Part shown: one piece after another, positions 18,001-24,000 of the stretch
Position numbering within the stretch: the first letter of the stretch is position 1
Layout: each line of letters opens with the position of its first letter
Source of the DNA: a candidate division WOR-3 bacterium
Lineage (GTDB): Bacteria > Hydrothermota > Hydrothermia > LBFQ01
Reading direction: 5' to 3'
DNA: 64,000 bases
Assembly: GCA_039802605.1 (NCBI GenBank)
Contig: JBDRWW010000001.1
Span: 192,001-256,000 of the forward strand
Program-made: the position numbers

Positions 18001-21000
18001 ACATCTCGGGAAATATTAAGACTTGCAAAGATATTTAAAGAATTGGGTATATCTAAGGTTAGGCTTACGGGTGGAGAACCGCTTTTAAGATGGGATTTAA
18101 GGGAAATAGTTGAGGGTTTAAAAGAACTAAACCTATCGCTAAACATCACGACAAATGGCATATTGTTGGATAACTACTTGGATTTCTTGAAAGACAAGGT
18201 GGATTACCTTTACAAAGCCTTGGAAAAGGGGTTTAAAATGGTTAAAATAAACACAGTAATAGCAAATGGGTTTAACGATGATAAAATCTTTAACTTTGTT
18301 GAGTTTGCCAAAGAAAAACCGGTTGCAATTGGGTTTATAGAATTTAAAACCCCTTTTATGAAAGGCCCTTTGGCCATACGGGTGCGGAGAAAATATTAAG
18401 GTCTCTGCAAGCGATCAAAAGGGATCGCCGGCATGATGGCGGCAAAAAGAACGGGCGAAATAATAACATACCCTTACTTTGGTAAAGGCCATACACCAAA
18501 CGGGTGTGGAGATGGGGGCGTTGTTAACCGTATAATAGTATTGTTCCGACAACCTTGGGTTTCAAAAGTTTAAACCCCTATTTGAGGTTTATTATATCGG
18601 CTTTTGTGGGTGGGGGTTTGGGATTCTTGGCGGGAATCATAGGGATAGGAGGGGGAATATTTTTAAGCCCGGTATTGATATTTTTCGGATTTGATCCCAA
18701 AACTACCTTATAAACTCCGCAAGCGGGCTCATAGCCCGTTTGGGTTTCGTGGATATAGATTGGAAATTTACGGTTTTAAGCGTTATATCCGTATTCATAG
18801 GGGGTTTTGCCGGCTCATATCTCGGATCTTATAGGTTTCAAAGTAATACGCTTAGAACTCTCCTCGGTTTGGTTCTTGTAGTTGCCGGTATTAAACTCCT
18901 ACTCTAATACCAAAACCCTTTTAACCCCGTTAGAACCTTTATAGAAATAAATCCCCTTATTTTCCGGTTTTGAAACCCTCCTACCATCAACCGTATACAG
19001 AAAACCGTTTTCCTTTATTATAAATCTCTCTTTCTCCATAACGATTGTGGAAGGTTCTTTAAAGCCTATATTTGCTATCCAAGTAGTCCATAAAGAATCC
19101 GTTCCCGCCTTCGGCAATTCCGCTATAACCCATAATGAGGAATCAACGGGATCAGGAGAACCCCCAAAATAATCCCCCCACCTGTTTCTACCGGAACCGT
19201 GGTCGTTAAAGTACCAACTTAAACCCGCTTTATACACATTGTAAGGGGAAAATAGTGTATCATAACTCACCCTTGCTATGTATGTGGCGGATGGATAGTT
19301 CGTACCGGATATGCCAACCCTCGTGAAGCTTATGGCAACACCCTTAGGCGATACGCTCACAGCCGGGTATATCCAACTTATCCCGTTCTCGTATAACCTC
19401 CTATCCTCCAAAACCACACCCGTTGTATCAACCACGACAAACCTAACGGATACCAACGAGGAATTAAGGGGGTGCGCTTCGTTAAATGCGTAGTAAATCT
19501 TTCCGTTTAGATAATAAACCTGAAAGGTTGCGAGTACAACTTCAAGGTTCGGATAACCCCCTCCCTGGGGGGCATCAGGAGGGGTGGAATATGGGGAGAT
19601 CGACAGGGTTATGCATGGTGAGAGTTGGGGCGATGAAACAGGCCCGTAGATTTTATACATCCTGTTAAACCTTATCAGATAAACGGCATCGGAATAATCA
19701 TAAGTACTCCTTGAAACCCTCGGCCAAGAGGGCATACAACCCAACTCCGAATCAACAAAATCCTCCCAAGATGATAGGGTACCATTATATGCGTCGGCTT
19801 TATTTAAAACCCTAACCTTTGGGTAATACGCATAGGATGAAAAACCTATCTGTTGTGAGGATATTACTATCCACTTATCGTTAAAACCCAATTCCGGATA
19901 ATCCGCCCAGTTGTTTGTTAAGGTGTTATCATCGTATTTGGCGTTTAGTCGGTAAAAGTACCATCCCCCTAAGGGGTTATCCCCCTCCGAAACGGCCAAC
20001 AGGTAATGGGATTCCCTGCTTGAAGAGTTGTAATACAAGGCCAAAACTATCCACCTTCCGGAAATTATGTCGTAAGCTATCTTAGGGTCAAAGGGCAAAC
20101 CCCCGGAGGGTATTACGGATGAAAAAAACCCGCGAAGAGTATTGATATATTCCGTAATCCCGGTAAATTTGTTTATAAATGCGATACTCGTATTAACCAC
20201 CACACCCACATGTGTGCTACAAGCGGCGAGTTGTGGATCCGGTGGTATCCAACCCGTATAGAAAATGCCTTCAAAATCCCTTATAAGGGTATCGGATGGG
20301 TAGGGGAGAAAGTCGGGATAAGGCCCCGTTTTATTTCCAAGGGGAACTTCTGCGGATTTTTCCCAAACATTTACATTCCTAAATTCCATAACCTCCTCCG
20401 GTGTTATCGGTATGTACTCCTTTGGGGGATTTGGCATATACGCCGTTTTTATTAAAACCGTATCAATTGCCAATATAAATAATCCCATCATCCCATTTAT
20501 TCTAAGGGAGGGAGATCCTATAAATGGATACCCGGGTTTTGTATATGTCCCTTTTGTGAAAACCCATAGAACGCCTTATTTTAAAGACAACATCCCCCTT
20601 CCTTTCAAAGGAAAAACCGTAAATTTTAGACAGCTTATCCAGAAACGGGTCACTGTTTGCCCCCAAAAGTGTCCAAACAACCTTTGCGCCCCTTATGGCG
20701 CATTCAATGAACTCTCTATCCGCCCCCTTTCTCTGCATACCAAAAGGGGGATTCATAATAACGGTATCACACTTAAAGTTAAACACCCTAACATCGGCGT
20801 TAATAAAATACACCGGTAATTTCCCATAAATTTCATCGGCCAGTAAAAGGTTCCTTTTTGCAACCTTTAACGCTTCAAGGTCAATATCAACACCTACGAC
20901 AAACTTTGCACCCAATATGGCGGCCCCTATACTCAAAACACCCGTCCCGCACCCAAGATCAAAAACGACCTTACCCTTTATATCCTTATAAGCCATATTC

Positions 21001-24000
21001 AGAAATTTCGCCGCTATTTCCGGAGGGGTTGGGTATTGTTCCAAGCGGGGTTTCGGATTTATAAAGGTTGCAAGGGTTTGTAAGAATATTTCATCCTGTT
21101 TCCTTAACATACCCTTCAAGTCTTTTTATAATTCCGTAGAAACACGATAATTAGGATGAATGTGGAATAGAGAATAACGGTCCATAAAGGGATTTTGAAT
21201 TCAAGGGCTGGCAATCGTAGGTTATAAGCAAGCACAACCAAACCGTAAAGTGTATTGAAGAGAAGTTCCGCCGATTTGTCAAAGGGGTAGCCCACGAACA
21301 TTGCCAGTATTTGGGAATACATAAACAAGGTCATTATGGGAATAACCAAAAGGTTTAAAGGAGCATAAATTATTGGGGATTTCCCAAAGAAATAAAGGGA
21401 AAAGGGTGTTGAGAATATTAAGGCGCCGAAAACGGATGTTATGGTGTTTTTTGGTAATAAAATAAACCCGAGAATTGCGGAAAATGATAACCAAAAGGAT
21501 GGGGAGAATATCCAAATGGGTTCCCATAGAAGGCATAAGGCAAAGGCCAACATAAACACATTTAAGGGCTTTACGGGCCTTGATATAATCTTTGATACTG
21601 CATAAAGGGTTAGCATTAGAGACGCCCGGAAAACGGAAGGGATAAGGCCCACAAAAAACGCATAAACCCAAACGAATAGGGATGAAAGAACATAAGACCA
21701 AACCCCAAGCCTTAGAAACCTGAGAATATGCAAAATCGCCAAGAATATTATACCTACATGCAATCCGGAGATCGCAAGGATATGCCCAACACCCGTATCG
21801 TAAAACATAGTTTTTGTTTTATAATCCAATTCCCTAACACCGGTTATAACCGATTTTGCAAACAAATACTGCCTTTCAGAACCGGTTGATTTTATAAGTA
21901 ATTTATCAACGATATCAACAAATGGCCGAAAGGAGGAGAATTTGTAATATTCGGAAACATAGAGGGTATCTTTTGAAAAATTTCCTTTAACCAAAATATT
22001 TCCAACGGGATAAGCCAACTTATCACCAAACAAAACGGTTTTAAACCCTTCGCCTACAACAAACCCCTTACCGATATCATAAACTTGAACCTCGTAAAAA
22101 TCACTCCCCTTTGGTATAAGCCTCTCCCAAACCCTTATGTATCCCAAGAGGAAGCAAAGTATAATTCCAAGAACCTCTAGGGGCTTTCTTAGAAACAATG
22201 GCAATAAAACAAAGGGTAAAAGGGCGAAGCCCGTAAATTTAAAAGATATGCCCAAAAATACAAAAAACGAGCATAAGGAGGGATAGTACAAGAAAAAATT
22301 ATATGTTGGTTTGGAAAATTTCACCGACCATAGAATAAACAACTATGGAGATTTTGTTGAATGCGCTTGTTGTGGTTTCAATTTTGAGTTTAATATCCAT
22401 CACGGTGGCGATATGGTATTTGGTATTGAAGATTACAAAAACCCTTGAAAGCATAGACAAGAACATAGAAAAGATGGCGGACGATATGGAGAGGATTTTG
22501 AAGAATGCCGATAGCATAACGGAAAAAATTGACAACATCTTAACCCCCATTGAAAGGATAACAAAGATTACACCGATTTTGAGTTTAATTGTTAGGTTTT
22601 TCCCCTTTTTCAAAAAGGGTAAAAAATAACGGCCTTATAATACCACCTTATGAAAAGGTGTATATTTGTTTTACCGCTGTTGGCAGGCCCCTTAGGGGCA
22701 CAACTCTTCTACGCGTATCCCCAGACGGTATTCGGTCTCAGAGGGGTGTATTCCTTCCGCTTCATGCACACGGCTTTCCTGTTTGAGGACGACTTGGATA
22801 GGCTGTTCTACCCCGTTAAACTCTCGGAAATAGAGGGTGGTAGGTTCTTCTCCGCGTTGTCCAACCCCTTCGGGAACGAAAGGGCGCTTGACCCCACGGC
22901 CCCTACAAACAACCAGTTAATCTTAGGAGCAAAGACAAATGTTTTCCTAAACCTTTCTCCTTTGTATATGCAAACGGATCTAAACTTTGGAGTTTCTTCC
23001 AAATTGGACACGGTTTATTATCAAAATTGGAGTAATCCGGATAACAAGTACGCGGATAGGATAGAATTAAAGGATACCGTGTTCCAAGGTAGAGGATACG
23101 GCGAAAAGGGTTTCCTATTATCCCTAGGAAATCAAACCTTTGGCTTCCTGTTCCTCTATTCAAGCATGAATATTAAGGTTTATCCACAAAGAACGGGGGT
23201 TTTCCCATTCTCTTATGGAAATTACGCGTATGTGCGTAAAGAATACGATAACATAAACAACACCTTACAATCCTCAGATTCCGCGGTATCTTACAGAACC
23301 GTTGATACAAGTATAACACCCGTTTTGTTTGGGGTATCGCTTGGTTTCGGAGGGTTTTCCGGAATGGTTTTTGGCGGTTTTATGGGCGCAGGCGATAGGG
23401 ATACGGCAAATAGGTATGCGGAGAGAAACACAAATCCGGCAAGTCCGTTTACCGGTCAGAAATGGAATGGTGTTTTAACCGCTAACGGTAGAGCCTCAGG
23501 GCCCATATTCGGATTGCAGGGGGATTTGGCCTTCGGTTCCGAAACCTGGAAGTCCAACCTGATGTTTGCCTATGCCCTTAGATACCTTTCAAACGGAAAA
23601 GGTAAATCAAACGAGGTGAACTGGTGGGGAATATATAACGCCACTCAATACCCCACTTTTAGCACACTCGATTCTACTATCGGCGAGTACAAATATTCTT
23701 CAAATACACACGATATAACCATATATCTGAGGAATAAATATCCGGTTCACGAGCAGGTTTTGTTCGGTGCCGGATTGGCCTTAGAAATGGTGTTTGGGGG
23801 AATGAGTAGGGATTACACAAATGTTTTAAACAAAAGGATAACCTTTAACGATACCGATGGGGACGGTCTCGTTGATGCCCCCGGAGATGTTAGAACAACC
23901 AATTATACCAAATATTCTTATAAGGAGAATGTATCAACCACATCTTTTAACTACCACATACCCGTTGGCTTTGAAGTTGTACCCATAGCGAGTTGGGAGG

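Follow-up and report, generated by a model that had tools for sequence, protein, structure and literature searches.

N6-Methyladenosine at position 1500 of the small-subunit rRNA (m6A1500), next to the decoding site, has been described so far in archaea and eukaryotes only, and an earlier account reports it from archaea and from some eukaryotes "but never in Bacteria" (PMC2584109, in part). A1500 in E. coli numbering is A1832 of human 18S rRNA, an equivalence that was stated in the genome survey preceding this work and is confirmed by the literature (PMC7005279 Table 4; PMC2584109, in part). The assignment of archaeal COG2263 proteins to m6A1500 is itself a prediction (PMC2584109 and PMC6735865, both in part). 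P. abyssi carries m6A1500 alongside m3U1498 and Cm1402 (PMC7005279 Table 4), so these three modifications are mutually compatible; according to one proposal, m4C1402 and m6A1500 exclude each other as domain-specific alternatives on one base pair (PMC7641309). Regarding the role of Trm112 in bacteria, "nothing is known" was the assessment in 2018 (PMC6144793). A compendium of RNA modifications in bacteria from 2026 mentions neither METTL5, A1500, nor Trm112 in its accessible parts, and a search of literature mostly outside subscription journals found no report of METTL5 or m6A1500 in any named bacterium, WOR-3 included.

Here, we describe a METTL5-type gene in a 64,000-nucleotide stretch of a WOR-3 genome (the window; Table 1). 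Its host family is one WOR-3 family of heat-loving bacteria, including Ca. Caldipriscus, and all genomes considered are metagenome bins. A promoter and terminator scan at the locus gave chance-level results. Part of a Caldipriscus ortholog locus is contained in 18 RNA runs; contigs from four of four runs cover the gene partly and none wholly, and because DNA carry-over is possible, they are not evidence of expression.

Table 1. The METTL5-type gene, its motifs, and its neighbors (window coordinates)
Feature	Position	Strand	Description
530-aa ORF, downstream neighbor	18899..20491	-	No Pfam/NCBIfam match; downstream in 2/12 host-family loci
METTL5/COG2263-type gene	20502..21110	-	Open throughout; 202 aa from ATG, 205 aa from TTG at 21119; single class I SAM-dependent methyltransferase domain
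FH	20556..20561	-	Residues 184-185; corresponds to F192/H193 of the human active-site loop; 23/23 host-family proteins
WTLLG	20661..20675	-	Residues 146-150; replaces usual YSLH(K); host-family-specific
Catalytic NPPF	20742..20753	-	Residues 120-123; 23/23 host-family proteins
SAM-binding motif I, DLGCGTG	20940..20960	-	Residues 51-57; 23/23 host-family proteins
LEQY	21033..21044	-	Residues 23-26; [L/F]EQY active-site signature of METTL5, before helix Z; 23/23 host-family proteins
comEC (competence membrane protein), upstream neighbor	21116..22342	-	PF03772, 5e-38; stop 6 nt before METTL5 ATG

A PDB sequence search with the encoded protein returned PH1948 (2e-36), human METTL5 (1e-28, two entries), and TA1320 (1e-22) in approximately full-length alignments; the next of 44 matches was partial and stood at 1.8e-6, in agreement with the survey's finding that these are the only PDB hits at E<=1e-8. 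The predicted fold (pLDDT 93.8) recovered the same three proteins at Foldseek ranks 1 to 10 (TM 0.70 to 0.87), and a wide score gap separates them from other methyltransferases. PrmA, PrmC/HemK, RsmC, and RsmD all fell below their curated NCBIfam cutoffs (bits/cutoff pairs of 47/183, 39/199, 33.5/87, 24/295, and 25/117.5), aligning over the SAM-binding half only. LEQY (the motif is defined in PMC6735865, in part), NPPF, D131, F134, and FH are each retained throughout the host family, the human equivalence of FH being read off the PDB-search alignment and the published human numbering. Position 176, equivalent to human Y184, carries F in 16 of the 23 proteins and L in the other 7, a variability similar to that among 97 outside homologs (F in 59, I in 15, L in 13). 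Where columns are at least 90% conserved in those 97, the host family keeps 34 of 36, including all named active-site residues. Three longer matches, considered as possible fused forms, all came from outside the host family. These comparisons, together with the tree and selection analyses below, support the assignment of the product to METTL5/COG2263 as an ortholog of METTL5, as had been claimed, with its NPPF motif intact.

All 12 host-family genomes gave a full-length METTL5-type match; none of the 7 sister-family genomes did, and among the other genomes of the class 1 of 42 did. The first two counts uphold the survey's finding that the gene occurs throughout the family and is absent from its sister; the lone outsider that it listed (genome G057) is a contaminant contig, on which the gene adjoins an archaeal 16S gene. 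A profile search of 272 genomes of the WOR-3 phylum placed the gene in 13. Among 5.8 billion proteins there were 526 matches at E<=1e-20, of which the best 120 were compared: 23 are host-family-like (49 to 95% identity), and the next 97 include 11 with a named organism, all archaeal, as reported previously. Two matches labeled "Thermotogae," raised earlier as a caveat, prove to be host-family genes. Searches of 50,697 phage records and of the best 80 among 160 viral-contig matches turned up no full-length homolog, and none was found on bacterial plasmids, the single match in 72,556 records being a haloarchaeal replicon. Together with the fold and with the tree and selection analyses below, the sequence distribution supports fixation of the gene in one WOR-3 family. 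Reverse gyrase is encoded in 10 of 12 host-family genomes and also in 4 of 7 from the sister family; heat alone is therefore insufficient to explain this distribution.

In a careful tree of METTL5 homologs, the host-family clade is monophyletic (100/100) and splits internally into two genera; monophyly was also recovered in two larger trees. The careful tree groups the clade with Archaeoglobaceae-like rows (96/87), a sister grouping absent from the two larger trees. AU tests rejected as donor a group taken for Thermococcales by sequence appearance (p 0.031) and did not reject an Asgard/Bathyarchaeia group (p 0.39). The host-family stem is long, at 0.85 changes per column. With dN/dS of 0.09 to 0.25 across 16 unsaturated host-family pairs and a GC content that tracks that of the locus from 40% to 62%, the gene shows purifying selection and has taken on the GC content of its host. 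In 59 of 80 outside metagenome loci, the best profile match of a neighbor is archaeal or eukaryal (Dph2 in 31, Csl4 in 13, others in 15, not all above cutoff), and no locus has a clearly bacterial one. These results support a single old transfer from archaea into the host-family ancestor, for which both the Archaeoglobaceae-like and the Asgard/Bathyarchaeia groups are possible donors. NAT10/TmcA and fibrillarin, which would indicate that archaeal rRNA machinery had been imported more widely, were not found in five of five genomes tested. Trm1 was found in five of five genomes tested of the host's order.

Two explanations would dispense with such a transfer. A pre-LUCA METTL5 might have been kept as a vertical relic in a deep-branching bacterium: two automated surveys trace METTL5 back to LUCA (PMC8481954, text and Table S5; PMC8868631, in part), which implies bacterial matches there, one account calls Caldipriscus deeply rooted (PMC11696919, in part), and our trees have no non-METTL5 outgroup. 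Nevertheless, we regard a relic as very unlikely. The gene is confined to one nested family, with none in the other 260 phylum genomes once the contaminant contig is set aside; its clade groups with Archaeoglobaceae-like rows in the careful tree; and the LUCA column of Table S5 (PMC8481954, in part) also holds many helicase and kinase paralogs in its two looser filters. Archaeal contamination or misassembly, which did affect G057 and might be suspected in that all genomes are bins, is already refuted for the host family and retains almost no probability, given that the gene sits on a 347-kb contig also carrying rsmH, is flanked by bacterial genes in 12 independent genomes, has a tree that matches the genera, and is host-like in GC.

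The Trm112 homolog cited in the survey lies where it was placed (G000, C2:133712-133897, minus strand; 61 aa, zinc knuckle only), but its presence supports the reading less than was implied, because homologs are class-wide (55 of 61 genomes, including 7 of 7 sister-family genomes without METTL5). This breadth and its 44 to 68% identity to class homologs rule out cotransfer with METTL5. A complex model of the METTL5-type protein with host Trm112 scored 0.85 versus 0.02 for the best of three controls, although likeness to the human complex, already solved, may account for this; the score mark applied is reached by 116 of 157 solved pairs and 2 of 215 mismatched pairs. The runs share at least 98% of contacts, partner pLDDT is at least 89, and the modeled interface residues (48, 70, 72, 102-104, and 112-114) correspond to the human METTL5-Trm112 interface. 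At 16 modeled interface positions, a mean of 12.5 are hydrophobic in the host family versus 9.1 outside, a comparison biased by picking positions from the family model. By this model, the enzyme would most likely use the host Trm112 as its docking partner.

The target context around A1500, GUCGUAACAAGG, is intact in six of six host-family-type 16S ends, from which three foreign-looking 16S pieces in genome G011 were excluded. Human METTL5-Trm112 methylates a 14-mer whose first 12 bases are common with the host-family site (PMC7948815, in part). In 16S rRNA, covariation in helix 28 (921/1396 and 927-928/1389-1390) and U1532A are specific to the host family; they are lineage signatures, and no link to METTL5 was seen. 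Genes for RsmH, RsmI, RsmE, and KsgA are each present in 12 of 12 host-family genomes, which rules out displacement of a bacterial writer by METTL5; because all four are retained alongside it, the family may carry both m4Cm1402 and m6A1500. The RsmH gene is separate and intact in all 12, the m4C1402 enzyme being found in none of four archaeal controls, and its dN/dS of 0.07 to 0.20 (four host-family pairs) versus 0.09 to 0.24 (four sister pairs) indicates purifying selection. An RsmH C-terminal tail seemingly specific to the host family (12 of 12 versus one short tail in eight) was rejected as a coadaptation: a tail of similar length occurs in 13 of the 18 listed among 20 further class RsmH proteins, with 2 of those 18 unparsed.

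The host family has also changed near the active site. At otherwise conserved positions, L6 has become D or H, Y146 has become W (W in 23/23; Y in 90/97 outside homologs), and H149 has become L (L in 23/23; H in 83/97); M182 stands where F or Y is otherwise found, and five residues are inserted at 92-96. The YSLH strand thereby altered to WTLL in 23/23 is conserved in the homologs aligned here, TA1320 likewise lacking the His, and the METTL5 literature consulted does not name it as defining. These changes, the insert, and the long stem show an episode of change following transfer. Because the substitutions are family-wide and near the active site, a substrate shift is possible, and the enzyme could have moved to another RNA adenine (in tRNA, 23S rRNA, or mRNA), perhaps because bacterial 30S assembly leaves A1500 hard to reach or because m4C1402 already serves it. 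The position of WTLL beside the catalytic strand, the L6 change, the long stem, and the selective maintenance of RsmH fit this view, and cross-domain transfer has shifted specificity before, in m5U methyltransferases and in Aquifex Trm1, which widened to G27 (PMC7694415, in part). Yet we consider such a move unlikely: the active-site residues are retained in 23/23 proteins, WT also occurs in archaeal homolog P0049 of the nearest tree group, and every ribosome in the cell carries the canonical site. That the gene encodes an orphan DNA amino-methyltransferase or acts in competence might be suggested by the likeness of METTL5 to M.TaqI, a weak N6_Mtase match (23.2 bits versus a cutoff of 20.4), and comEC, adjacent in 6 of 12 host-family loci. 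This neighbor, which lies upstream in five loci and downstream in one and does not appear in the remaining six, all short, is probably insertion context only. Moreover, the 202 residues hold no target-recognition domain, the locus, phage, viral-contig, and plasmid searches met no restriction partner or mobile occurrence, and human METTL5 binds RNA, not DNA (PMC6735865, in part); we hold a DNA-directed or competence function to be highly improbable.

We propose, as the probable reading of these sequence data, that an archaeal METTL5 was acquired once, inherited vertically, and N6-methylates 16S A1500 in the host family. From the archaeal gene's single entry into the family ancestor onward, the enzyme would bind SAM, dock on the small zinc-knuckle Trm112, and methylate A1500, a base set in UAACA between helices 44 and 45 that it would flip out in the immature 30S subunit. 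The m6A1500 so made would join the bacterial set of m4Cm1402, m3U1498, and dimethyl-A1518/1519 and may stiffen the P-site C1402-A1500 pair contacting mRNA, a benefit that we infer to be plausible at high temperature. More tentatively, and with the balance tipped slightly against it, the decoding center could be a previously undescribed hybrid in which METTL5 and native Trm112 make m6A1500 and RsmH/RsmI make m4Cm1402, so that both bases of the pair are methylated.

RsmH retention beside METTL5 is the most interesting consequence and, like the near-active-site substitutions, was absent from the survey's finding. The proposal of m4C1402 or m6A1500 (PMC7641309) becomes testable in a bacterium that has genes for both writers. 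If the hybrid reading is true, it would provide the first m6A1500 in a bacterium, the either/or rule would be broken, bacterial Trm112 would gain its first concrete role as a defined partner in ribosome maturation, and the host METTL5 would be an enzyme already adapted to bacterial 30S assembly. Novelty is tempered by NCBI's automatic naming of the Caldipriscus copies as "METTL5 family protein" and by precedent for archaeal RNA methyltransferases in hot-spring bacteria.

Among known systems, human METTL5-TRMT112 (18S m6A1832; PDB 6H2U/6H2V) resembles the host enzyme in its single class I domain (35 to 36% identity, TM 0.85 to 0.87), LEQY, NPPF, FH, the aromatic or aliphatic residue at the Y184 position, and an identical target sequence core; its modeled Trm112 interface may also match the human beta-zipper. 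In contrast, the host enzyme, whose activity is predicted, would operate in a bacterial 70S context with RsmH/RsmI/RsmE, has WTLL instead of YSLH, and has as its predicted partner a 61-aa, zinc-knuckle-only Trm112. Archaeal COG2263 proteins (HVO_1475, PH1948, and TA1320; predicted 16S m6A1500 writers) are 42 to 47% identical at best, the host clade lies among archaeal sequences, and HVO_1475 binds a Trm112 that is also 61 aa long. Unlike them, the host-family gene lies outside the Dph2/Csl4/RpoL neighborhood typical of the archaeal loci examined, has a long stem and the insert, and coexists with an m4C1402 enzyme. For bacterial RsmH, the proposed methyl position on the C1402-A1500 pair coincides with that of m6A1500 (PMC7641309), although its target base and protein family are unrelated. 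Finally, Aquifex Trm1 is also an archaeal-type RNA writer in a hot-spring hyperthermophilic bacterium, but it acts on tRNA G26/G27, not rRNA (PMC7694415, in part).

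The gene is a genuine, old, and selected ortholog of METTL5 in a bacterial family. A PDB sequence search returned only three strong relatives, PH1948 (2e-36), human METTL5 (1e-28), and TA1320 (1e-22); the next best of the 44 matches reached 1.8e-6 and was confined to the SAM-binding part. When an AlphaFold2 model (pLDDT 93.8) was used in a structure search, PH1948, METTL5-TRMT112, and TA1320 filled ranks 1 to 10, and every cluster among the ESM Atlas matches listed was METTL5-like and archaeal-dominated or eukaryotic, with a single domain of life at 63 to 100%. No NCBIfam model passed its cutoff (PrmA, 47/183 bits); NCBI's automatic name for the family protein is already METTL5. 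The active-site residues of METTL5 were named by van Tran et al. (PMC6735865, sections 14 and 15). LEQY, NPPF, and FH are present in all 23 family proteins, and the Y184-equivalent position is F or L. Thirty-four of 36 columns that are at least 90% conserved across 97 outside homologs are kept, the two losses being L6 to D/H and Y146 to W; H149, present in 83/97 outside homologs, is L in every family member. Mean net charge is +8 in the family versus +3 outside, which fits an RNA substrate. The PDB matches, fold search, and kept active-site residues bear out the survey's finding of METTL5 orthology with an intact NPPF motif.

The survey had also placed the gene in every genome of the family and in none of the sister family, and this pattern now extends to 12/12 and 0/7 genomes for a full-length match, with 1/42 in the rest of the class. 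A search of 272 phylum genomes with a 71-row profile gave 13 matches, those 12 genomes and G057. The G057 copy, previously counted as one from elsewhere in the class, is not genuine, because an archaeal 16S rRNA gene lies about 160 bases past its end and marks the contig as contamination. This adjacency is the lone neighborhood hint toward a 16S target. Two proteins labeled Thermotogae, raised earlier as a doubt, sit at zero or near-zero tree distance from the genes of genomes G011 and G007 and are thus family members under another label. Named relatives at 69 to 71% belong to "Candidatus Caldipriscus," a WOR-3 genus described as abundant in streamers of 82 to 84°C springs (in part of PMC11696919).

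In unrooted trees, the family copies form one clade split by the two genera (SH-aLRT, 100 with 133 rows; 100/100 with 54 selected rows). Over the 16 pairs whose synonymous sites are unsaturated, their dN/dS is 0.09 to 0.25. The GC content of the gene follows that of its locus across a range of 40% to 62%, and its codon usage falls at the 33rd percentile among 1,086 ORFs of its own genome. With 120 of 526 protein matches listed, all 11 organism-named proteins among the 97 outside the family are archaeal, as had been claimed. Selected neighbors were scanned at the 80 best-matching of 298 metagenome loci: a neighbor's best match was an archaeal/eukaryal family in 59; 5 had L15 or HTH neighbors, and 16 had no such neighbor. 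The 21 loci without an archaeal/eukaryal neighbor mostly cluster with marked or named archaea, with L175 and L180 left unplaced. The L180 locus (L180:604-1896) has a weakly DnaA-like neighbor (103/344 bits) and is the sole candidate for a second bacterial copy. Searches of phages, viral contigs (best 80 of 160 matches), and bacterial plasmids yielded no full-length copy. The simplest reading is that the gene passed once from archaea to bacteria, into the ancestor of the family. The donor may be Archaeoglobaceae-like: the careful tree (54 selected rows) sides the family with such sequences (96/87), and one alternative was rejected (p 0.031), but another was not (p 0.39). METTL5 has been dated to LUCA by two automated surveys that, in the parts available, count bacterial proteins without displaying them (PMC8481954, text and Table S5; PMC8868631).

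The neighborhood varies across the family. comEC lies upstream in 5/5 genomes of one genus, and an AAA_33 kinase lies tightly upstream in 7/7 of the other; tblastn found no match to this kinase in the host genome. Two long ORFs of the window, apparently secreted or outer-membrane proteins, matched nothing in Pfam or NCBIfam at E ≤ 0.01.

Coordinates of the features discussed (G000 is the host genome, C numbers are contigs, and L numbers are compared loci)
Feature	Location	Strand	Remarks
METTL5 gene	window 20502-21110	-	open ORF, 202 aa
Tandem HIT-like genes (two)	window 16317-16978	+	109 aa each; identified by HxHxH motif alone
QueD	window 16962-17861		two-domain fusion
MoaA-like radical SAM ORF	window 17938-18399	+	153 aa, about half normal length
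Long ORF	window 18899-20491	-	530 aa
Long ORF	window 22650-24305	+	551 aa
AAA_33 P-loop kinase	L007:952-1500; equivalents in L008-L013		182-187 aa; overlaps or abuts METTL5 start
Trm1-family tRNA methyltransferase	G000:C15:20430-21428		in 5/5 order genomes tested
Host 16S rRNA gene	G000:C3:80425-81976		A1500 equivalent 81934, C1402 equivalent 81849, in E. coli numbering
Family 16S end	L001:2860-3055		
Family Trm112	L078:1413-1598		
Trm112-domain ORFs, family f5	L040:730-1659; L046:578-1519; L049:730-1659		
Archaeal METTL5 gene	L014:979-1605 (G057:C107)	shared with 16S	inside bacterial bin
Archaeal 16S rRNA gene	L014:1768-3045 (G057:C107)		

A Trm112 homolog is present, as reported, and is not special to METTL5 carriers: it occurs in 55/61 genomes of the class, 11/12 of the family, and 7/7 of the sister family, so it is native to the family. 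The family protein has 61 aa and four cysteines and is encoded just before dnaX (recognized by eye) at 11/11 loci, a site that differs from that in the remaining class. It has an additional YCPK motif and a C-terminal EPCE (11/11), possibly an added cysteine pair. In family f5 (3/3), the Trm112 domain is instead the C terminus of an ORF of about 310 aa that starts with a Rossmann-like motif; RsmE was not found in those three genomes. The predicted METTL5-Trm112 complex scored 0.85 versus 0.02 for the best control, at a mark passed by 116/157 solved and 2/215 mismatched pairs; contact agreement between runs was at least 98%, partner pLDDT was at least 89, and the interface aligns with the human one. 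Because the human complex is solved, this pass may reflect likeness only. Trm112 is perhaps dispensable, since Thermococcales are described as lacking it (in part of PMC6144793), but P. abyssi has m6A1500 (PMC7005279, Table 4).

The same table equates A1500 in E. coli numbering with human A1832, as the survey had it. The site is intact in 6/6 family-type and 5/5 sister-family 16S ends and so does not discriminate. The family-type ends also carry covarying helix 28 pairs, and GGAACACCUCC replaces GGAUCACCUCC before the anti-Shine-Dalgarno (both 6/6 versus 0/5 sister ends). Three 16S pieces of G011 (L056, L069, and L073) are unlike the family 16S and apparently contamination. Human METTL5-Trm112 is reported to methylate a 14-mer of the A1500 site in vitro at low salt (in part of PMC7948815); an earlier study failed to demonstrate such activity (PMC6735865). 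We consider it probable that the family enzyme makes 16S m6A1500. The other main reading, a different RNA target, we regard as rather unlikely; remaining readings rank lower.

In print, m6A1500 has been stated to be "never in Bacteria" (in part of PMC2584109), and a literature search found no report of METTL5 or m6A1500 in this family. C1402 is the pairing partner of the modified base. A suggestion by Laptev et al. is that m6A1500 fills the role of m4C1402, hence the lack of m4C1402 in archaea and the eukaryotic cytosol (both in part of PMC7641309). RsmH, RsmI, RsmE, and KsgA are each kept in 12/12 family genomes. RsmH, judged by its sequence, is intact, keeping 46 of 54 columns invariant in eight outside rows, with a dN/dS of 0.07 to 0.20. 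Its retention beside METTL5 has a consequence that the survey overlooked: either m4C1402 and m6A1500 coexist in this family, or one of the two enzymes has switched target.
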